From Candidatus Fervidifonticultor sextus (lineage in GTDB: Bacteria > Sysuimicrobiota > Sysuimicrobiia > Sysuimicrobiales > Humicultoraceae): 64,000 bases of DNA. The notes beneath the pieces are model-generated. The model did no database searches, was not told the DNA's origin, and was given only the letters and a program-made list of their open reading frames with translations. The DNA is taken from positions 1-64,000 of the forward strand of contig JAVKHQ010000002.1 of the NCBI GenBank assembly GCA_031459875.1, given 5' to 3'. This document shows positions 31,631-64,000 of this stretch, in pieces. Position numbers and translations under genes: made by a program. Position 1 is the stretch's first letter; every line of letters begins with the position of its first letter.

Positions 31631-32805
31631 GCATGCGGCGGGTGGCCGTGGTCGGGGCCGGGATGACCCGCTTCGTCCGGCGGGCCCTGGAGACGCCAAA
31701 GGAACTCGCCTGGCAGGCGGCCCGGGCGGCGCTGGAGTCCTGTGGGCTCGGCCTCGACCGGGTCGACGGCGTCTGCATCGGCAGCGCGCCCGATGCCTTC
31801 GACGGCGTGCACATGAAGGGCGAGTACCTGGCCGACGGCTCGGGGGGGTGGGGCAAGCCGACCATGCGGTCCTACGTCGGCGGGGGGACGGGCGTGTTCG
31901 TCGCGGCGCAGGCGTGGTACCACGTGGCCAGCGGCCTGTTCGATGTGGTGCTGGCGGTGGCCGAGGAGAAGATGTCGAGTTACTCCCCGCACGCCCAGGC
32001 CGCCTTCCTCACGATCTTCGACCACACGACGGAACGCCCGCTGCAGCCCAACCTCCTGTGGATCTTCGCGCTGGAGATGAACCGCTACATGCAGACCTAC
32101 GGCATCTCCAAGCGCGACATCGCGCTCGTGGCCGTGAAGAACAAGCGCAACGCCGCCGACCATCCCGCCGCGATGCTGGGCGAGGCCGACATCACCGTGG
32201 AGGACGTGCTGAACTCCGAGGTCCTGGCCTGGCCGGTCCAGCGCCTGGACGTCAGCCCGGTGAGCGACGGGGCGGTCGCCGTCGTCTTCGCCGCGGAAGA
32301 GGCCGCTGCCCGCATCACCGACCGGCCGGTCTGGGTGCAGGGCGTCGGGTGGAACCTCGACACCGCCTACTGGACGAACCGCGATCTCGCCTACCCGGAG
32401 TACGTGGAACGCGCGGCCCGGATGGCCTACGAGATGGCGGGCGTCCGCGAGCCACGCAGGGAGATCCACATCGTCGAGCCCTACGATCCCTTCGACTACA
32501 AGGAACTCCACCACCTGGAAGGGTTGCTGCTCGCCGATCGCGGGAAGGCGCCGGAACTGGTGGCCCAGGGCGTGACGCGGCGCGATGGGACGATGCCGTC
32601 GTGTCCGTCCGGGGGGCTGCTCGGCGTGGGCAACCCCATCGCCGCCGCCGGCCTGATGAAGGTCGCAGAACTGTTCTGGCAACTGCGGGGCGAGGCGGGC
32701 CGGCGGCAGGTGCCGGGGCGGCCCGAACGGGGCCTGGCGCAGGCGTGGGGCGACCTGATGCAGGTGGGGACGGTCGTGATCCTCGGCACGCGGCGGCCCG
32801 GGTGA
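31627..32805 (+). CDS. Thiolase-superfamily (SCP-x type) protein B
   Basis: VAVVGAGMT, EEKMS, VKNKRNA, SPVSDGA, PSGGLLGVGNP. Confidence 0.85.
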   Translation: MSMRRVAVVGAGMTRFVRRALETPKELAWQAARAALESCGLGLDRVDGVCIGSAPDAFDGVHMKGEYLADGSGGWGKPTMRSYVGGGTGVFVAAQAWYHVASGLFDVVLAVAEEKMSSYSPHAQAAFLTIFDHTTERPLQPNLLWIFALEMNRYMQTYGISKRDIALVAVKNKRNAADHPAAMLGEADITVEDVLNSEVLAWPVQRLDVSPVSDGAVAVVFAAEEAAARITDRPVWVQGVGWNLDTAYWTNRDLAYPEYVERAARMAYEMAGVREPRREIHIVEPYDPFDYKELHHLEGLLLADRGKAPELVAQGVTRRDGTMPSCPSGGLLGVGNPIAAAGLMKVAELFWQLRGEAGRRQVPGRPERGLAQAWGDLMQVGTVVILGTRRPG

Positions 32806-55746: not shown

Positions 55747-56426
55747 TTTGGCCTCACCACCACGCGGCCGGGGAGTCTGCTCAAGCCGCACATCCCCATC
55801 CGCTCCTTCGCCCAGTGGGATGAGCACCGCCCCGGTTTTATCGAAATGGATCTCGTGGGTCTTCACCGCACTCACCACGATCCGCGACCAGCTCCCCTTC
55901 CCCCTGCTGGGCCTCGACGCCGACAACGACAACGCCTTCATCAACGCCCACCTGATCGCCTATTGCCGTGCCGAGCACCTCACCTTCACCCGAGCCCGTG
56001 AGTACCGGAAGAATGACCAGGCCTACGTCGAGGAACGGAACGGCGCGGTCATCCGCCGCGTCATCGGCTATGATCGCTATGAGGGCGAGCCGGCGACCGC
56101 GGCCCTCAATGCCGTCTACGAGGTCCTCCGCCTCTGGATCAACTTCTTCCAACCGTCCATGCGACTCATCGCCAGGCAGCGCGTCGGCACGAAAGTCCAC
56201 AAGCGCTACGATCAGGCCAGGACCCCTTACCAGCGAGTCCTCGACTCGCCCACCGTCTTGGCAGCAGACAAGCAGGCGCTCCGAGACCTCTACCTCACCC
56301 TCAATCCCATCAGCATCCGGGACGAGCTCGACCACCGGCTGCAGAGGCTCTGGGCCCTCCGCTCAGAGTAAGATCTACGATGAGTCAACAGGTCCACGGA
56401 GAGTAAGGTTTTCAGATGAGTCAACA
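55747..56426 (+). mobile_element. DDE (rve, ISNCY-like) transposase remnant with right end
   Basis: TRPGSLLKPHIPIR...PGFIEMDLV, then deletion/frameshift, then LDADND..FIN, FTRAREYRKNDQAYVEERN, TPYQR. Confidence 0.8.
56366..56426 (+). repeat. Two direct repeats at the IS end
   Basis: GAGTAAGATCTACGATGAGTCAACA and GAGTAAGGTTTTCAGATGAGTCAACA. Confidence 0.8.
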
Positions 56427-56497
56427 CCAATCACCGCCTGACCTGCCTCAGCGGCGTGAGTGGGGTGGGCCGGGCTGACTGTGCGCCTGCAGACCCG

Positions 56498-57940
56498 TCA
56501 ATACGCCCGGGCGTAGTAAACCGTCGCCGTCGCCGCCTGCCCGCAGGCCGGGCAGGACCCTACCGGCACATCATCCAGCGGGATGACCCGGGGCGAGGCG
56601 CCGGTGCGGTCGCGGACGGCATCTTCGCAGGCCTGCGCGCCGCACCAGCCGGTCCGTATGAACCCCCGCCGGTCCCGGATCGCGTCCTCAATCTGGTCCA
56701 GCGTCTCCGCCGCCACGATGTGCGCGTCGAGGAAGGCCCTGGCCCGCGCGAAGTAGGTGCGCTGCACGTCGTCCAGCGCCGCGGCCACGGCCCGCTCGAT
56801 ACCGTCTGCCGCCACCGTCTCTTTCCGGCCGTCGGGGCGTCGGACCAGCACGACCTGGCCTGCCGCCACATCCCGCGGCCCAACTTCCAGGCGGAGCGGG
56901 ACCCCTCGCATCTCCCAGTCGTTGAACTTCCAGCCCGGCGTGTACTCGTCGCGGTCGTCCAGGCGCACGCGCGCCACGGACTTCAGCCGGCCGGCGAGAT
57001 CGCGGGCGGCGGCCAGCACCCGCTCCGTGTCCTTCCCCAGGATCGGCACGATGACCACCTGGATCGGCGCGATACGCGGCGGCAGGCTCAGGCCCCGGTC
57101 GTCGCCGTGGGCCATCACCAGCGAGCCGATCAGGCGGGTGGTCACGGCCCAGGAGGTGGTCCAGACATACTTCTCGGTGTTGTCACGGTCGAGGAACTTC
57201 ACCCCGAAGGCCCTGGCGAAGTTCTGCCCGAGGAAGTGGCTCGTGCCCGCCTGGATGGCCTGCCGGTCCGGCATGAGGGCTTCCAGGGTGTACGTCCAGT
57301 CGGCTCCGGCGAACTTCTCCGACGGCGGCTTGCGCCCCACTAGCACCGGGATCGCCAGGACTTCCTCCAGCAGCTCCCGGTAGATTTCCAGGATCAGCCG
57401 GCACTCCCGGTCGGCCTCTTCCAGGGTGGCGTGCGCGGTGTGACCCTCGTGCCAGAGGAACTCCGCAGTCCGCAGGAACAGTCGCGTCGCCTTCTCCCAC
57501 CGCACCACGTTGTTCCACTGCAGCAGCAGGATGGGCAGGTCCCGGTAGGACTGGATCCACCTGGCGTACATGGGCATGATGATGGCTTCCGACGTCGGCC
57601 GCACCGCCAGCCGCTCGGCCAGTGCCTCCGCGCCGCCGTGGGTCACCCAGGCCACCTGCGGGGCGAAGCCCTCGACGTGCTCGGCCTCTTTCTTGAGCAG
57701 CGACTCGGGGACGAACAGCGGGAAGTAGGCGGTGACGTGGCCGGTGGCCTTGAAGCGCTCGTCCAGCCAGCGCTGGATGCCCTCCCACAGCGCGTATCCG
57801 TAGGGCCGGATGACCATGCACCCGCGCACCGGCGAGTAGTCGGCCAGTTCGGCCTTGAGGACGACGGCGGTGTACCAATCCGAGAACTGCTCGGATTTGC
57901 TGGGGATCTCCCTGACGAACGCCTGGGTCTCAGAGGACAT
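56498..57940 (-). CDS. proS: Proline--tRNA ligase (archaeal/eukaryote-like type)
   Basis: HVEGFAPQ, RPTSE, FLRTAEFLWHEGHT, QAGTSHFLGQNF, C-terminal ARAY. Confidence 0.96.
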   Translation of the reverse strand: MSSETQAFVREIPSKSEQFSDWYTAVVLKAELADYSPVRGCMVIRPYGYALWEGIQRWLDERFKATGHVTAYFPLFVPESLLKKEAEHVEGFAPQVAWVTHGGAEALAERLAVRPTSEAIIMPMYARWIQSYRDLPILLLQWNNVVRWEKATRLFLRTAEFLWHEGHTAHATLEEADRECRLILEIYRELLEEVLAIPVLVGRKPPSEKFAGADWTYTLEALMPDRQAIQAGTSHFLGQNFARAFGVKFLDRDNTEKYVWTTSWAVTTRLIGSLVMAHGDDRGLSLPPRIAPIQVVIVPILGKDTERVLAAARDLAGRLKSVARVRLDDRDEYTPGWKFNDWEMRGVPLRLEVGPRDVAAGQVVLVRRPDGRKETVAADGIERAVAAALDDVQRTYFARARAFLDAHIVAAETLDQIEDAIRDRRGFIRTGWCGAQACEDAVRDRTGASPRVIPLDDVPVGSCPACGQAATATVYYARAY

Positions 57941-58079
57941 GATCCGCTCCCGCCTGAGGGTTCGGGGATTATCCTAGCATACTCCCGCCGGACTTCACGG
58001 ACGCGCGCGGTGGGCCGCTGAGGCCCCGGTGGGAGTGCTGCGCGAGAGGCGGGACCCACCCCGCGGAGAACCGTTCCCG

Positions 58080-59636
58080 CTATCGTCCCTCCAGCCATGT
58101 GTTCCAGAAGGCGTGACCCGGCTGGCCGGTGTAGCCCTTGAGCTCCTTCCGATGGAGGTGCAGCAGGAAGTAGTCGCCGTACTTGATGGCCGGGACCTCC
58201 TCCCAGAACAGTCGCTGGGCGCGCTGCCAGATCTCCATGCGCACCTTCGGGTCGGTGTGCCGCTGGAGCAGGGTCATCATGCCCTGCATGTCGCGGCTCT
58301 CGTACCAGCCCGGCCAGGTGGGGTTGAGGACGAGGACCTGCGTGGGATCGGGAAAGGTGAGTTGCGCGGTGTTGAGGGCATCCCACAGCTCAGGGCGCGT
58401 CCGGCGCGAGATGAGCGTCGCCCAATCCACGACCTGGAAGTCGAAGACGAACCCGGCGCGTTCCAGCATCGGCTTGGCGATCTGCGCGGAGATCCCGTAG
58501 GCCTGGTACTCCATGGTGGTCATCCACTTGATGGGCTCCCCGCGGTAGCCGGCCTCCGCCAGCAACTGCCGCGCCCGCTCGGGGTTGCGCTGGTGGTAGT
58601 GCTCGCGGCCCACGTCGGTCCACATGTAGTGCGGCTTCGGCAGCAGGGCCGGGTCGAGGCGCCAGAACCGCGGGTGGCCGAAGGTGCCCCGCATGATCGC
58701 CTCCATGTCGAGGGCGGCCAGCCAGGCCTGCCGCATCTTGGGGTTGACAAAGGGACCCGTCCGCTTGTTGAAGACCGTCGTCAGCCACAGCGGCACGGGC
58801 GGGACGAACGGCACCAGGTTCGGGTCGGCCTGGAGGCGCGGGAACTCGTCCTGGGGCACGCTGTCGGCGAAGTGGTAGTCACCCCGAATCACCCCCGCGA
58901 TGCGGACGGCGACGTCGGGCACCGGCACGAAGATGAGCGTGTCGAGGTAGGCCACCTTCCGTCCGGTGAACCCGTCGGGCGCCTCGCTGCGCGCGCTGTA
59001 GCCGTCGAAGCGGTCCAGCCGGACGTGCCGGTCGGGGAGGTGTTCCACAAACCTGTACGGTCCGGTGCCGATATACCGGCGGATGGGGCCGGCTCCCGCT
59101 TCCTCGATCACCTCCTTCGGGTAGATGACCGCCCCCTGGAGGGAGAACCCCAGGTCGACCAGGATCGGACCATAGGGTTCCTTGAGGGTGAGAACCACAG
59201 TGTGCGGATCCGGCGCGCCGAGCGAGCGGACCACCGAGAACAGGGCGCGGCCGCGCGTTGCGAGCCGTCCCCAGCGGGTCAGCGAGGCCACCACATCGTC
59301 ACTGGTCAGGTCGCGGCCGTGGTGGAAGCGGACGCCGCGGCGCAAGGTGAAGGTGTAGGTCAGTCGATCCGGGCTCGCTTTCCAGGTATCGACCAGCATG
59401 GGACGGGGTTCGAACGTGCTGGTGAGCGCGAACAGGCCTTCATAGACGTGGAGCATGATGTCCCCGACGATCACGGCGGTCGTCAGGTGCAGGTCAAGGG
59501 TCGGGGGTTCCCCGATGTGGGCCATGCGGAAGACCCCGCCGCGTCGGGGCTGGGCCTCCCCTGAGGTCATCGGAACCGCCGCCAGGATCATGGCGAGCAG
59601 GCCCGCGCAAAGGTAGCGCGCTGCGCGTCCCATCAC
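58080..59636 (-). CDS. ABC transporter solute-binding protein, family 5 (orphan)
   Basis: EPPTLD, YTFTLRRGVRFH, IGTGPY. Confidence 0.9.
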   Translation of the reverse strand: MMGRAARYLCAGLLAMILAAVPMTSGEAQPRRGGVFRMAHIGEPPTLDLHLTTAVIVGDIMLHVYEGLFALTSTFEPRPMLVDTWKASPDRLTYTFTLRRGVRFHHGRDLTSDDVVASLTRWGRLATRGRALFSVVRSLGAPDPHTVVLTLKEPYGPILVDLGFSLQGAVIYPKEVIEEAGAGPIRRYIGTGPYRFVEHLPDRHVRLDRFDGYSARSEAPDGFTGRKVAYLDTLIFVPVPDVAVRIAGVIRGDYHFADSVPQDEFPRLQADPNLVPFVPPVPLWLTTVFNKRTGPFVNPKMRQAWLAALDMEAIMRGTFGHPRFWRLDPALLPKPHYMWTDVGREHYHQRNPERARQLLAEAGYRGEPIKWMTTMEYQAYGISAQIAKPMLERAGFVFDFQVVDWATLISRRTRPELWDALNTAQLTFPDPTQVLVLNPTWPGWYESRDMQGMMTLLQRHTDPKVRMEIWQRAQRLFWEEVPAIKYGDYFLLHLHRKELKGYTGQPGHAFWNTWLEGR

Positions 59637-59668
59637 GATCTCCTTTCAGTCCCTCTGGATTCGCCCCG

Positions 59669-60106
59669 TCACGCCGGCATGCGGTCGAAGGCGGGCCCCT
59701 GCCCGTTCAGGCCGGCCTGGGCCGCCAGGCGCTCCGCCGTGGCCGTTCCGTGGTTGATGGCGCGGACCCGGCCGTCGGGGCCGATCACCACCGTGCTGGG
59801 CACGGTCAGGATCCCGAAGCGCTCGACGAGGGCCTCGTACTCCAGCGCATCCACGTCCCGCACCACGACGCGCCCGGGGTACTGCCGGGCCAGGGCGTCG
59901 AGGGCGGGGCGCTGGATCATCTTGCAGGGCGCACAGTCGGGAGCCGAGAAGGACAGGACCAGCGCGCCGGCCTGCGCCGCGCCGAAGGTCTCCACCACGT
60001 CGTGGGCGCGGGCGCCCATGACCCGCCGCCGCCGCCACGCAAGCCACAGCCACACCGCCCCCACCGCGGCCAGCACGATCACGAGGGCTGCAACCGGCGC
60101 GCTCAT
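59669..60106 (-). CDS. Membrane-anchored thioredoxin (ThiX-like)
   Basis: N-terminal TM, FSAPDCAPC, ILTVPST. Confidence 0.85.
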   Translation of the reverse strand: MSAPVAALVIVLAAVGAVWLWLAWRRRRVMGARAHDVVETFGAAQAGALVLSFSAPDCAPCKMIQRPALDALARQYPGRVVVRDVDALEYEALVERFGILTVPSTVVIGPDGRVRAINHGTATAERLAAQAGLNGQGPAFDRMPA

Positions 60107-60115
60107 GGCGGTCCC

Positions 60116-60562
60116 CTACGCGCCCTCGGGACGGCGGGGCAGCCACCCGCGCCGGGAGAGCTGGTAGTACACGAAGCACCCCGCGCAGAACCCGACCGTG
60201 ACGTTGAGAAGCGCGAGGGCCGCCACCAGGCCGGCCAGCACCCAGCCCAGCGTGGACACGCCGGCGAAGAGCGCCAGGGTGGATGCCGCCAGGACCGCCG
60301 CGCCGACCCCCTGCGCGAAGCGGTGGGGCGCCGGGTCGTCGGGGATGATGCGTGGCCGGGCCAGGCGCAACGGCACCGCCACGCGATGATAGAGTAGCCG
60401 AAACAGGCTCCTCGTCGGCGACGCCGCACTGGTGGCCAGCGCCGCGGTCAGGAACGCGATCAGCCAGGGCGCCTGCAGCGCGCCGGCGACCACGACCCAG
60501 ACCGCGATGACGAGCTGGGCGAACTTGATGGCTGTCTGATCGACCGTCAATCCCTGCGCCAT
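60116..60562 (-). CDS. DUF4395 membrane protein
   Basis: DDPAPHRFAQGVG, LNVTVGFCAGCFVY. Confidence 0.85.
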   Translation of the reverse strand: MAQGLTVDQTAIKFAQLVIAVWVVVAGALQAPWLIAFLTAALATSAASPTRSLFRLLYHRVAVPLRLARPRIIPDDPAPHRFAQGVGAAVLAASTLALFAGVSTLGWVLAGLVAALALLNVTVGFCAGCFVYYQLSRRGWLPRRPEGA

Positions 60563-60680
60563 GATGCACTCTCCTCCGTCCTCTCGGCCAGACTGCGCAG
60601 AGCCGGTGCGGAGGCTCGTGCCGGGCGCCTGCGATCAGGGTGCGATGTAGGGCGGAGCTACCAGCGGGCGGGGTGGACGA

Positions 60681-60776
60681 TCAGGCGAAGGCGCCAGGCT
60701 GCCTCCGCCGTGGACAGATGCACTGTCGCGGGGTGTAGGGGCTGTGGGCCCGTCGAGTCCACAGGATGATCTTCAT
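60681..60776 (-). CDS. Putative Cys-containing leader peptide (31 aa)
   Basis: GAGG RBS, then MKIILWTRRAHSPYTPRQCICPRRRQPGAFA*, between the promoter and DUF4395. Confidence 0.55.
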   Translation of the reverse strand: MKIILWTRRAHSPYTPRQCICPRRRQPGAFA

Positions 60777-60790
60777 CGTCCTCGTCAAGA

Positions 60791-60819
60791 ACTATGGCAG
60801 ACCGCCCCGGAGGTGTCAA
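60791..60819 (-). promoter_or_regulatory. Sigma70 promoter for leader-DUF4395-trx
   Basis: TTGACA-17 bp-CATAGT. Confidence 0.65.
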
Positions 60820-60987
60820 GGCGTCCTGCCCGATCCCGCCGATCCGCAGAGGCCCTCGAGGGCGCACGGCTGCGTGCGTTGACGGCCGTTGCCGAGTCCT
60901 GTAGTCTGACAGCGTGCCAGCGTACGGTCGCACCGCTACCCCGCCGGTCGGTCGTCCCGCGCCCTCCGGGATCACGCCGCTTCGGTC

Positions 60988-62241
60988 ATGAGTCTCACGC
61001 AACTCCTGACGCTGGGCATCTTCGTCGTCACCTATGCGCTTGCCGTCAGCCGGGTCGTCAAGATTGCGTACGTCTCGCTGGCCGCCGCGGCGCTGCTGGT
61101 GGTCACCCGTATCCTGACCCCCCACGAGATCGTCACCCAGGCCCTCAAGTGGGACGTGCTGGGCATCTACTGGGGGTTCATGATGGTGTCCATCGCCTTC
61201 ATGGACAGCGGGGTCCCCAAGCTGCTGGCCGAGCGCATCCTCTACCATGCCCACACCGAAAAGCATGCCGTCCTCTACCTGGCGACCGCCACGGCCGGCC
61301 TCTCCATCTGGATGGAAAATGTGGGGGTCGTGTTGATGATGGCGCCCATCGCGCTGGAGATCAGCCGGCGGCTGAACTCTTCCCTCTTCCCCTACATGGT
61401 CACCGTGGGCATCGCTTCCAACGTCGTGACGACCGTGACCATGGTCGCAGACCCGCCAACGATCATCCTGGCCATCGAGACCGGCATGAAGTTCAAAGAC
61501 TTCTACTGGTTCCTGGGGCGTCCGGGACTGGGGACCCTGACGGTCGTCGCCGTCATCGCCGCGCTGCTGACCCTGCTCCTCCAGTTCAGAGGGATGTCCC
61601 AGCGCATTGATCTGCCCGAGGACCGTGCGCCGGTGACCTGGGGCGCGACGGTCCTCTTCGTGGTGGCGGTGACGGCGCTCGCCTTCGGCCACGAGCGGGG
61701 GCTGCCGCCGGGGATCGTGGGGGTGGCGGCCGGCGCCATCGCCCTGTGGCTGAACCGGGGGCGGTTCCGCGCCATGTTCGTGGAGTTCGATTGGAATTCG
61801 TTTGCCTTCATCATCGGGATCTTCGTCGTGGTGCACTCGCTGCGTTCGACGGGGTTGCTGACGGAGTTCGCCCGCCTGCTCCACGGCATCGGCCTCCAGA
61901 GCCCGGCAGTAGCCATGGCCGGCCTGATCTGGATCGCCGTGGCGGCGTCGTCGTTTGTCGACAACGTCCCGTTCACCGTCCTGATGATCCCGGTCGCCCA
62001 GGACCTGGCCCGGCTCCTGGGGATCAGCCCCTGGCCCTTGCTCTACGGCATGCTGGTCGGCACCGGCAGCGGCGGCAACATCACCCCCGTGGGGGCCACC
62101 GCCAACGTCTTCGCCTGCGGCTTCCTGGAGAAGCACGGCTACAGGATCCACCTGGGCCAGTACATGAAGATCAGCGTGCCCTTCACGGTGGTGGCGGTCG
62201 GCGTCGCGCACATCCTGCTGGCCGTCTTCTGGCTGCGGTAG
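60988..62241 (+). CDS. ArsB/NhaD (SLC13/CitM-like) permease
   Basis: MENV, TMVADPP, SFVDNVP, GGNITPVGATAN. Confidence 0.85.
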   Translation: MSLTQLLTLGIFVVTYALAVSRVVKIAYVSLAAAALLVVTRILTPHEIVTQALKWDVLGIYWGFMMVSIAFMDSGVPKLLAERILYHAHTEKHAVLYLATATAGLSIWMENVGVVLMMAPIALEISRRLNSSLFPYMVTVGIASNVVTTVTMVADPPTIILAIETGMKFKDFYWFLGRPGLGTLTVVAVIAALLTLLLQFRGMSQRIDLPEDRAPVTWGATVLFVVAVTALAFGHERGLPPGIVGVAAGAIALWLNRGRFRAMFVEFDWNSFAFIIGIFVVVHSLRSTGLLTEFARLLHGIGLQSPAVAMAGLIWIAVAASSFVDNVPFTVLMIPVAQDLARLLGISPWPLLYGMLVGTGSGGNITPVGATANVFACGFLEKHGYRIHLGQYMKISVPFTVVAVGVAHILLAVFWLR

Positions 62242-62269
62242 CCCACCCTCCCCACGGGCCCGCCGGGTC

Positions 62270-62315
62270 TTGACAGCGGGACTCGAGCATGTCCATTATT
62301 TAGGAGTCCTAAGTA
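62270..62315 (+). promoter_or_regulatory. Promoter with palindromic operator TTAGGA-G-TCCTAA
   Basis: TTGACA at 62270; TATTTAGGAGTCCTAAGTA at 62297-62315 overlaps the RBS and ATG. Confidence 0.7.
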
Positions 62316-62968
62316 TGAAGTACCTGGGTTCCGATCCCTTTGACACCGCCGCGGACCCGCCCACGCAGCGCATCGCCGCCGGTCTGGCCAAGGTGGGACT
62401 GGTCCTCAAGCACCAGGCCTGGCGCCGAGCCGGTGGGAGGGGGCTCTCGCCCACCCAGGCCCAGGTCCTGACAACCTTGCGGCACGCGCCGCGGGGGATG
62501 CGCCTCGGTGCAGTGGCCGACCGGCTGGCCGTCACCTCGGCCACCGCCAGCGAGGCGGTGGGCGCACTGGCGCGGAAGGGGCTGGTCCGCAAGGCGCGGG
62601 ACGTCGCTGACTCCCGGGCAATCTCGATCCGGCTCACGCCGGCAGGCCGCCGGGCGGCCGGCCACCTCGCCGGCTGGCCCGATGTCCTGCTCGACGCCGT
62701 GGACGCCCTCGGGCCGGACGAACAGGCTGTCTTCCTGCGAGGGCTGATCAAGATGATCGCCCTCCTGCAGGAACGGGGGCAGATCCCCGTCTCGCAGATG
62801 TGCGTCACATGTCGCTTCTTCCGGCCGCACGTGTACCGCAATCCAGACCGACCGCACCACTGCGCGTTTGTCGGCGCCCCCTTCGGCGACCGGCACCTGC
62901 GGCTGGACTGTCCGGATCACCAGCCAGCCGTCCCACAACACCTCGATGGGAGGAGGTCGGACGCATGA
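62315..62968 (+). CDS. MarR-family regulator with C-terminal Cys/His metal-binding motif
   Basis: LSPTQAQVL, DSRAISIRLT, MCVTCRFF...HHC...CPDH. Confidence 0.85.
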   Translation: MKYLGSDPFDTAADPPTQRIAAGLAKVGLVLKHQAWRRAGGRGLSPTQAQVLTTLRHAPRGMRLGAVADRLAVTSATASEAVGALARKGLVRKARDVADSRAISIRLTPAGRRAAGHLAGWPDVLLDAVDALGPDEQAVFLRGLIKMIALLQERGQIPVSQMCVTCRFFRPHVYRNPDRPHHCAFVGAPFGDRHLRLDCPDHQPAVPQHLDGRRSDA

Positions 62969-63555
62969 ACGAGCAGACCATCCCGGGCTACTGGTACGGC
63001 ACCACCCAGGTGGCCCGTTCTCCGGTGACGCCAGACGATCTGGCACGCCTCAAACAGAGCGTCCTGTTTACCGACGACGACGAGCGCTACCTGCGTATGG
63101 CAGGAAAGGTGCTGGCCGACCAGGTGGAGGAGATCCTGGATGTGTGGTACGGGTTTGTCGGATCGCACCCTCACCTGGTCTACTACTTCACCGGCCCCGA
63201 TGGTCACCCCGATGCCAGCTATCTCGCCGCGGTCCGCCGGCGCTTCGGCCAGTGGATTCTCGACACATGTCGGCGAACCTACGATCAGGACTGGCTGAAC
63301 TATCAGCATGAGATCGGCCTGCGCCACCACCGGACCAAGAAGAACCAGACCGACGGCGTGCGCTCGGTACCCCATATCCACCTGCGATACCTGGTCGCTT
63401 TCGTCTACCCCATCACGGCCACCATCAAACCGTTCCTGGCCAAGGGAGGCCACAGCCCCGATGAGGTGGAGAAGATGCACCAGGCGTGGTTCAAGTCCGT
63501 GGTGCTCCAGGTCGCGCTGTGGAGCCGCGCCTACGTCGGCGGGGACGACTGGTAG
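62965..63555 (+). CDS. Protoglobin
   Basis: IPGY.YG, ILDVWY, RFGQWILDT, EIGLRHHRTKKNQTD, AWFKSV. Confidence 0.9.
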   Translation: MNEQTIPGYWYGTTQVARSPVTPDDLARLKQSVLFTDDDERYLRMAGKVLADQVEEILDVWYGFVGSHPHLVYYFTGPDGHPDASYLAAVRRRFGQWILDTCRRTYDQDWLNYQHEIGLRHHRTKKNQTDGVRSVPHIHLRYLVAFVYPITATIKPFLAKGGHSPDEVEKMHQAWFKSVVLQVALWSRAYVGGDDW

Positions 63556-64000
63556 GCGTCCAGCCGGACTCGCCCGGCTCGGCGCCCTGCGCCCGGATCC
63601 AGGCCATGGCCTCGGCGATGGCGGCCTCCTGTGCGCCCCGGGACTCGGCCGGAGGGGGCAGCGCCGGGCCGATCCGCACGGCCACCCGGCCCGGTCGGGG
63701 CAGACGGGCGCCCAGCGGGAAGACCCGGCCGGTCCCGATCAGGGCGACCGGGGTGATCGGGACGCCGGCGCGGGCAGCCAGGAGGGCCGCCCCGCGGCGG
63801 GGCGCACGAGGCTGCGGGCTCACCCCGCCTTCGGGGAAGACCCCGACCTTGCGGCCGGCGGTCAACGCCAGCAGCGCCTCGCGGACGGCATCGGTGTCCA
63901 CCTCGCCCCGGCGCACCGGAATGCAGCCGTAGGTCCGCATCGCCCAGCCCACGGCCGGCAGGGCCAGGAACTCGCCGGCCGCCACGAACAGCACCCGGTC
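63491..64000 (-). CDS. 1-acyl-sn-glycerol-3-phosphate acyltransferase (PlsC-like), 5' end outside the window
   Basis: IPVRRG, VFPEG, GAALLA, VPITPV. Confidence 0.8.
   Translation of the reverse strand, partial: DRVLFVAAGEFLALPAVGWAMRTYGCIPVRRGEVDTDAVREALLALTAGRKVGVFPEGGVSPQPRAPRRGAALLAARAGVPITPVALIGTGRVFPLGARLPRPGRVAVRIGPALPPPAESRGAQEAAIAEAMAWIRAQGAEPGESGWTPTSRPRRRRRGSTARPGAPRT

Follow-up and report, generated by a model that had tools for sequence, protein, structure and literature searches.

Leader open reading frames (ORFs) are known from several well-studied systems. The trpL, hisL, and pheL leaders are short ORFs with codons for the amino acid concerned, the ermC and cat leaders carry a stalled ribosome that re-pairs the downstream RNA and exposes a masked Shine-Dalgarno (SD) sequence, giving control of translation initiation, and in tnaC the ribosome stalls at the stop codon. 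For cysteine, terminator-less leader peptides were predicted in Actinobacteria by Seliverstov et al. (2005), who suggested Rho as a factor (PMC1262725), and Cys attenuator small ORFs (sORFs) are annotated in M. tuberculosis (PMC13096801 and PMC4633059). In mycobacteria, the polycysteine sORF Ms5788A is described as controlling the Ms5788-cysA2 sulfurtransferase operon via SD masking (10.1101/834739). In our searches of the literature on cysteine leader peptides and on DUF4395, a name that two papers mention, neither of them relevant, we found no case outside Actinobacteria. Here we describe a 31-codon sORF upstream of a DUF4395-thioredoxin operon, on the minus strand of a 64,000-nt stretch of Candidatus Fervidifonticultor sextus (contig JAVKHQ010000002.1, positions 1 to 64,000; hereafter the window).

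We favor the interpretation, at a probability of about 0.5, that this sORF belongs to a conserved ribosome-dependent leader (attenuator) of the DUF4395-thioredoxin operon that reads the supply of Cys-tRNA. The leader probably tunes the operon to cysteine supply. We infer the cysteine signal, the polarity, and the output step, which would be either masking of the ribosome-binding site (RBS) or Rho; cysteine is the presumed signal because the operon content is related to thiols and sulfur and both Cys codons are invariant.

Comparison with the mycobacterial Cys sORFs (Ms5788A / Rv0815A, the "Cys ribulon"; Canestrari et al., 10.1101/834739) shows both likenesses and disparities. In each case the operon is sulfur-related and opens with an unannotated sORF, the Cys codons are the presumed sensor, no intrinsic terminator accompanies the sORF, the proposed output is SD availability through RNA pairing, and a rhodanese-type sulfurtransferase may lie downstream (cysA2 there, and in 4/15 relatives here). 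The mycobacterial sORFs have a C-terminal run of 2-8 Cys codons, whereas every copy here carries its C-I-C mid-ORF. Nor do the Cys codons here take part in pairing with the SD, and a three-part switch of RNA segments (S1:S2, S1:S3, and S3:RBS, defined below) takes the place of one long duplex. The phylum here is Ca. Sysuimicrobiota, and the window mRNA probably has a short leader, whereas the mycobacterial sORFs are leaderless. The element does not appear to be a member of the mycobacterial polycysteine family, because its Cys codons are not consecutive, show no pairing with the SD, and are in an mRNA whose leaderless status is doubtful; of the known systems it would nonetheless work most like that one. 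The original prediction, made from the letters of this stretch alone, had proposed an analogous CxC attenuator: a conserved sORF and switch partly bear this out, while the Cys codons lie outside the helices and the mycobacterial geometry is not matched.

The sORF, its operon, and their distribution

The promoter, the 31-codon sORF, and the 118-nt spacer before DUF4395 were all found at the minus-strand positions where they had been predicted, and the peptide is exactly the one quoted. The components of the locus are as follows.

60791..60819, minus strand: promoter-like site, TTGACA (60819-60814), 17 nt, and CATAGT (60796-60791), with TG before the -10
60681..60776, minus strand: leader sORF, 31 codons plus stop, from ATG at 60776 to TGA at 60683-60681; carries no annotation
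60563..60680, minus strand: spacer of 118 nt between the sORF and DUF4395, up to the DUF4395 ATG at 60562
60569..60585, minus strand: DUF4395 ribosome-binding region GAGAGGACGGAGGAGAG, containing CGGAGG at 60578-60573
60116..60562, minus strand: DUF4395 membrane protein, 148 aa (PF14340, E 9.5e-32)
59669..60106, minus strand: thioredoxin with an N-terminal membrane anchor, 145 aa (PF00085, E 1.3e-11)

Both Pfam matches pass their gathering cut-offs (DUF4395, 110.5 bits against 24.5; thioredoxin, 44.8 bits against 23.5), and the two genes are separated by 9 nt. The promoter-like site, with 10/12 matches, is the only one in 59500-61100, where 50 shuffles gave a mean of 0.0 sites. In the ORF listing, the sORF frame is also open from a TTG at 60788. 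An SD-like GAGG ends just 3 nt 5' of the sORF ATG, and since transcription is expected to start about 7 nt after the -10, the 5' untranslated region in the window would be about 7 nt.

A protein search with DUF4395 scored 2905 candidates, of which 2163 were relatives at E <= 0.001, and a scan of species-representative genomes yielded 425 DUF4395-relative loci; we analyzed the best 80 of these 425, looking upstream of DUF4395 by a six-frame motif scan and inspection. A homologous sORF was found in 15/80 loci (L001, L002, L004-L006, L009-L011, L024, L026, L031, L032, L045, L064, and L075), which with the window makes 16 DNA copies. It lies 54-146 nt upstream of DUF4395 in the carriers (the spacers are listed as 63-146 nt) and is 25-36 codons long, with the exception of L064, at 48. 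The carriers are labeled Fervidifonticultor, Armatimonadota (as metagenome-assembled genomes), "bacterium", or "Bacillati bacterium ANGP1". The closest relative, L001, is Ca. Fervidifonticultor octavus (NCBI phylum Ca. Sysuimicrobiota), whose DUF4395 is 97% identical to that of the window, and in the distant carriers DUF4395 is only 50-57% identical. The other 65/80 loci, mostly Chloroflexota, lack this sORF.

All 16 copies have an open frame with a start codon beside a promoter-like site. A filtered scan placed a TTGAC[A/G] hexamer at the matching place before the sORF in 12/15 loci; in L004-L006 the hexamer was found by eye, with TACAAG as the -10, and L075 has no upstream sequence. Every sORF for which such sequence is available thus has TTGAC[A/G] ahead of it. 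The distance from the -10 to the ATG is 7 nt in L024, L026, and L031, whose mRNAs are probably leaderless; it is 12-14 nt in the window (14), L001, and L002, and the remaining copies have 22-32 nt and a GGAG. The earlier description of the element as "leadered" is marginal given the leader of about 7 nt in the window and the three relatives with the ATG 7 nt from the -10.

Protein searches used a profile of 14 sORFs. A word-indexed search of 5.8 billion proteins gave seven matches, and an exhaustive search of 1.84 billion protein representatives gave eight, seven of them real members of the family; the eighth, P0128, was rejected as an unrelated repetitive protein. None of the called members has a name, and all real ones keep P-R-[Q/K/R]-C-I-C. 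The scarcity of called copies agrees with the expectation that the sORF would be invisible to standard ORF calling. Pfam and NCBIfam contain no match to the peptide. At the nucleotide level, a covariance model built from the distant clade recovered all 16 copies (E 1e-21 to 8e-4). The best other match to the model, at 32573-32675 of the window on the minus strand (16.1 bits, E 0.34), is probably noise.

Thioredoxin follows DUF4395 in 7/15 carriers and in the window. A link to sulfur metabolism had been proposed from the mycobacterial parallel, in which one attenuated operon was said to begin with a DUF4395 gene, and the operon here does continue into a two-domain rhodanese, a sulfur-transfer protein, in 4/15 carriers (L009, L010, L011, and L064). 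Among NCBIfam models this rhodanese matches 3-mercaptopyruvate sulfurtransferase best, at E 2.6e-38 but below the model cut-off. A cupin gene lies downstream in L009, L011, and L045. DUF4395 itself has two motifs, DDPAPHRF and FCAGCF, that are invariant in 34 aligned relatives, and its AlphaFold (AF2) model, mostly helices with a predicted local distance difference test score of 92, has no fold match in the PDB at E <= 0.001; DUF4395 may be an uncharacterized membrane thiol-redox fold. The thioredoxin begins with a hydrophobic helix followed by RRRR, and by the positive-inside rule its redox domain would be membrane-tethered and face the cytoplasm.

Peptide core and alternative RNA helices

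Within the sORF, a segment constrained as peptide is followed by one constrained as RNA, and the latter takes part in two competing helices. The segments involved are listed below.

60714..60737, minus strand: peptide-constrained core Y-T-P-R-Q-C-I-C, with Cys codons TGC (60722-60720) and TGT (60716-60714)
60701..60710, minus strand: S1, CGGCGGAGGC, an SD-like arm inside the sORF (RRR codons)
60693..60700, minus strand: L, loop or linker
60684..60692, minus strand: S2, GCCTTCGCC, the 3' arm of a local hairpin with S1
60608..60630, minus strand: S3, AGGCGCC...CCTCCGC, a distal segment that pairs with S1, L, and the first bases of S2
60651..60659, minus strand: window-specific additional anti-SD-like copy, AGCTCCGCC, located between the stop and S3

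The core of the family is Y-x-P-R-[Q/K/R]-C-I-C. Among its seven codons (x excluded) the variable columns number 1, 1, and 5 at codon positions 1, 2, and 3, with synonymous changes of TAC/TAT, CCG/CCT/CCC, and CGA/CGG/CGT, and this variation mainly at third positions indicates constraint on the peptide. The residues Y, P, R, C, I, and C are invariant in 15/15 aligned DNA rows, where the ATC codon and the second Cys codon, TGT, never vary. The original prediction was to be judged by conservation of the sORF and its Cys codons in relatives, a test that it withstood: both Cys codons of the CIC motif are kept in all 22 family members (16 DNA copies and six further called peptides). The codon after CIC is free (P, R, F, or S), being Pro in 10/15 rows. 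In the next four codons, CGG-CGG-AGG-CAG, the pattern is inverted, with 3, 2, and 0 variable columns at codon positions 1, 2, and 3; variation in S1 at the first two positions and never at the third implies constraint at the RNA level. Likewise 15/15 rows share an unchanged GCCTTCGC, even though its frame gives G-A-F-A in one clade and G-V-P-S-L in the other, which again points to constraint on the RNA. The N-terminus of the sORF varies freely and the frame of its C-terminus differs between clades; L024 is the sole copy with an extra CC near the N-terminus.

These two kinds of constraint bear on readings in which only one product of the locus matters. It is improbable, in our estimate, that the sORF encodes a small protein partnering DUF4395 and thioredoxin, for example as a CxC redox partner, with the helices serving stability or processing. 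Such a protein would account for the coding constraint on the core, for the copies called as proteins in public sets, and for the CxxC motifs of the operon partners; against it, only about eight residues are conserved, the N-terminus is free, the C-terminus switches frame between clades, and the helices connect the sORF with S3 and, through S3, with the RBS, a switch-like arrangement. Equally hard to credit is an RNA-only element, whether a riboswitch or a protein-binding leader, in which the open frame is incidental to GC-rich DNA. S1, S2, and S3 are indeed conserved as nucleotides, and long ORFs come easily at about 70% G+C (69 ORFs are listed in 7 kb), but an incidental frame does not explain the third-position variation of the core (1, 1, 5), the 16/16 open frames whose start stands beside the promoter and either after an SD or 7 nt past the -10, or a stop codon that always falls between S2 and S3, and no Rfam family matches the element. 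The Rfam searches gave no relevant match at E <= 10 in 59000-62000 and none at E <= 0.01 in 56000-64000, and the leaders of five relatives were likewise without a match.

S1 and S2 form a local hairpin of -17 to -24.5 kcal/mol in 14/16 copies (-18.8 in the window), the exceptions being L011, where the anchor did not place, and L064, where the hairpin has decayed. The alternative is a long helix of about 20 bp between S1-L and S3, with which S1:S2 is mutually exclusive; the paired portion of S1 is GGCGGAGGC (60709-60701 in the window). Across the 15 aligned rows the long helix has predicted energies of -25.0 to -50.6 kcal/mol, where the shuffles average -16.5 to -28.9, and in the window the value of -39.6 kcal/mol (shuffles, -24.5 +/- 3.9) was reached by 0/200 shuffles. 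RNAalifold returned the long helix as the consensus separately in the nine-sequence distant clade and the six-sequence window clade. Pairs that are compensatory between clades occur at six alignment columns, 37 (C:G / U:A), 38 (A:U / C:G), 40 (G:C / C:G), 41 (six types), 42 (U:A / G:C), and 45 (U:A in nine rows, C:G in six), as tabulated from per-sequence duplex predictions over few independent lineages, which makes for good though not formal evidence.

All of the pairing partners named in the original prediction are present, namely GCGGAGGC (60708-60701), GCCTCCGC (60615-60608), CGGAGG (60578-60573), TCTGTCC (60718-60712), and GGACGGA (60581-60575). The first two proved to be part of the long helix, recovered in both clades and with compensatory changes, while conservation is lacking for the pairing of TCTGTCC over the Cys codons with GGACGGA at the RBS, which does not exceed the controls in 12/16 copies and is marginal in the other four, the window, L001, L005, and L006. 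RNA folding, which had been proposed as a check, separated the long helix from shuffles and did not distinguish the leader as a whole, whose 241 nt fold at -94.5 kcal/mol against -96.5 +/- 4.4 for shuffles (z +0.46). The feature stands above chance by virtue of its conservation in relatives, the window region alone being unremarkable. In the unconstrained fold of the window, AGCTCCGCC pairs with the DUF4395 SD, and the covariance model aligned this copy as the 3' arm in place of S3; in L001 it is degenerate.

The positions of these segments relative to the sORF are fixed. S1 starts 5 nt past the second Cys codon, so that the Cys codons lie just upstream of the conserved helices and not within them, and GGAGG follows at exactly 7 nt in 15/16 copies. 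In all 16 copies the sORF stop falls between S2 and S3, following S2 by 1-14 nt, with 22-70 nt remaining to the end of S3. In L064 a palindromic in-frame insertion of about 45 nt (L064:2780-2830) separates the Cys codons from S1. L064 is also the sole copy in which S2 and S3, invariant elsewhere, have changed, as if its switch were decaying; though a single case, it fits what a functional link would predict.

The conservation of residues other than Cys raises the question of whether the peptide itself acts on the ribosome. In such a scheme Y-x-P-R-Q-C-I-C would be an arrest peptide whose stall is set in the exit tunnel and then works through the same RNA switch, with a signal other than tRNA charging: free cysteine, another thiol, redox state, or a thiol-binding metal. 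Conserved residues of this kind are typical of regulatory arrest peptides such as TnaC and SecM. Y, P, R, and Q/K are kept as residues through synonymous changes, which the counting of codons does not need, Pro follows CIC in 10/15 rows, and a conserved peptide segment is present beside the presumed stall site, although this is a resemblance only. There is a precedent in CutF, a copper-sensing nascent protein with a Cys motif that frees a downstream RBS from masking (PMC9973294). Against such a scheme, the peptide has no likeness to known arrest peptides in Pfam or NCBIfam, both of which came back empty, and the mycobacterial authors (10.1101/834739) report conserved non-Cys residues in cysteine-responsive sORFs too. 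On balance we regard as doubtful that a thiol-bearing arrest peptide senses a small molecule or the redox or metal state in the ribosome and flips the three-part switch. If true, this would be a new class of nascent-chain sensor, spread across a candidate phylum, ahead of an uncharacterized membrane CxxC protein and its thioredoxin.

Connection to the DUF4395 start

The end of S3, YUCCGC, is anti-SD-like, and we compared its pairing with the RBS of its own operon to that with 65 heterologous DUF4395 RBS regions and 200 shuffles. The window S3:RBS pairing, at -24.9 kcal/mol, was equaled by 5/65 heterologous regions and 22/200 shuffles. Controls pairing as well as the own RBS were counted in ten further loci.

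L026: heterologous 0/65, shuffles 0/200
L031: heterologous 1/65, shuffles 2/200
L032: heterologous 1/65, shuffles 3/200
L045: heterologous 1/65, shuffles 2/200
L010: heterologous 1/65, shuffles 2/200
L064: heterologous 3/65, shuffles 17/200
L024: heterologous 4/65, shuffles 27/200
L006: heterologous 7/65, shuffles 93/200
L001: heterologous 8/65, shuffles 56/200
L005: heterologous 10/65, shuffles 113/200

S3:RBS complementarity is strong in five loci and moderate in three, including the window. The RBS region also copies S1 beyond the SD core, as GCGGAGGC in L024, and carries YGGAGG in the window, L075, L026, L031, and L032. Because these pairings share their partners, the layout is a chain in which S2 competes for S1, S1 for S3, and S3 for the RBS.

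In the favored model, a ribosome with either Cys codon in its A site would reach the foot of S1 and hardly enter it. With ample Cys-tRNA, ribosomes would traverse S1, L, and S2 to the stop, and the S1:S2 hairpin would close behind them, leaving S3 free to mask the RBS, or the C-rich spacer bare for Rho, with low expression as the outcome. With scarce Cys-tRNA, the leading ribosome would halt at UGC or UGU just before S1, and S1, being unoccupied, would pair together with L to S3. Formation of S1-L:S3 would free the RBS or hide the C-rich tract, and DUF4395 and thioredoxin would be made.

Constrained folding allows the states of this model to be compared. Relative to an sORF fully occupied by ribosomes, a stall at the first Cys codon (Cys-1) gives higher SD accessibility in 7 and lower in 1 of the 16 copies, and a stall at the second (Cys-2) gives 8 up and 1 down or 9 up and 2 down, depending on the footprint; in the window the accessibility goes from 0.00 with the sORF fully occupied to 0.21 with a ribosome parked at Cys. 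When the structures are forced, RBS accessibility is higher with the long helix in only 11/15 loci (mean 0.34 against 0.28). The comparison of the fully occupied and parked states lends modest support to the favored polarity.

The same element could in principle run with the opposite polarity, the operon being made only when the Cys-containing leader is fully translated and cysteine is sufficient. A ribosome at the second Cys codon would then cover the 5' part of S1, and the unpartnered S3 would close on the RBS. When the ribosome at Cys-2 is given a footprint of 28 nt that extends 12 nt beyond the A-site codon, SD accessibility does fall in four loci, L031 (0.40 to 0.04), L032 (0.61 to 0.00), L075 (0.51 to 0.00), and L064 (0.15 to 0.02), and classical kinetics would lead to the same end, since with the ribosome parked upstream S1:S2 would form first and S3 would be free for the RBS. 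In the same Cys-2 calculation, however, accessibility increases in L026 and L009 and stays unchanged in the window, L001, L002, L005, L006, and L024. The stalled against fully occupied comparison leaves the SD more accessible in 7-9 of 16 loci and less so in 1-2, and, on the mycobacterial pattern, a shortage of cysteine would be expected to raise expression of the sulfurtransferase genes found in four relatives. We consider the opposite polarity unlikely.

The output step may be Rho instead of RBS masking. After the stop, the spacer is C-rich and G-poor (C 0.49 and G 0.23 in the window, from stop-10 to stop+60), and C exceeds G around or after the stop in 16/16 copies, while in the gene body C and G are about equal.

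Counterevidence, related systems, and implications

Several observations weigh against the favored reading. There are only two Cys codons, not adjacent to each other (an Ile codon stands between) and outside the helices, unlike trp, his, and Ms5788A, and conservation of Y, P, R, and Q as amino acids is more than a pure codon counter would need. An intrinsic terminator was found neither in 59500-61100 nor, by eye, in the leaders of relatives. The excess of S3:RBS pairing is absent in L002, L004, L009, L011, and L075. Constrained folding makes no single uniform prediction of polarity across the loci: accessibility falls in the four loci named above with the 28-nt footprint at Cys-2, and the forced structures of the window go the opposite way to the majority, at 0.29 with the long helix against 0.51. 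The cross-clade compensatory changes are of the informal kind described above, and double changes within clades are rare (0/19 and 1/22 pairs). L003, whose DUF4395 is 79% identical, has no leader, and a similar promoter adjoins DUF4395 directly. Finally, the covariance model found no further credible copy in the 516,620 bases made up of the 64-kb window and the locus flanks, so that no regulon is seen in this sequence.

With these reservations, the leader proposed here shares the general features of the trpL, hisL, and pheL class in its ORF, codons, and structure, with exclusive helices between which ribosome position would decide, and like trpL it has only two regulatory codons. Unlike trpL, hisL, and pheL, it lacks a terminator hairpin with a U tract and has its regulatory codons upstream of the first helix, not inside it; also unlike classical attenuators, the hub S1 pairs with two downstream partners, where the classical segments pair with their neighbors in a chain. 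The logic of a stall that leads to SD exposure would be the same as in ermC and cat, which 10.1101/834739 also discusses. Those leaders are triggered by an antibiotic in concert with a specific nascent peptide; the presumed trigger of the present leader is the supply of Cys-tRNA, and its stalled ribosome would stop short of the first arm instead of resting on it. Like mgtL and tnaC, leaders with Rho-dependent termination, the sORF lacks an intrinsic terminator and has a C-rich, G-poor tract directly after its stop, which RNA structure or a ribosome could hide or expose, and Rho is a candidate factor in the present leader; unlike in tnaC, the distance from the core to the stop varies.

Other features of the window and of related loci were noted. 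Three genes divergent from the leader occupy 60988-63555 on the plus strand: a CitMHS/ArsB-type transporter (best NCBIfam match MamN-like, E 2e-29, below the cut-off), a MarR-family regulator with a Cys/His-rich C-terminal tail, and a protoglobin whose start overlaps the stop of the regulator. T-box leaders were detected at L026:1545-1690, L031:3860-4005, and L045:5389-5540 (E 3e-7 to 3e-11, below the Rfam gathering score), those of L026 and L031 directly preceding a gene for prolyl-tRNA synthetase; in the window, the stretch ahead of proS (57941-58079) yielded no such leader. Different sORFs with Cys codons also occur ahead of DUF4395. Two Ktedonobacteria-type loci, L017 (at about 2800) and L057 (at about 2761), share an sORF ending RHLLLGPPTSTRCxC about 200 nt before the gene, and the Chloroflexota loci L018, L066, L067, and L076 have polycysteine sORFs upstream (CICIC, CCMACLCC, CCC, and CYCACSCC). 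The idea that Cys-rich sORFs are general ahead of DUF4395 was rejected: among the 63 loci without the present leader and with enough upstream sequence, mostly Chloroflexota, no significant enrichment was found, with 11 sense against 4 antisense when a start codon was required and 17 sense against 16 antisense when read stop to stop.

In conclusion, the leader described here would extend cysteine-sensing leader ORFs beyond Actinobacteria into an uncultured hot-spring phylum. Its architecture differs from that of the known systems in having a segment constrained as peptide and then one constrained as RNA, together with a three-way switch. It would offer an initial way into the regulation of DUF4395, a membrane protein that is widespread and has no known function, and it shows a route by which a conserved regulatory gene escapes annotation.

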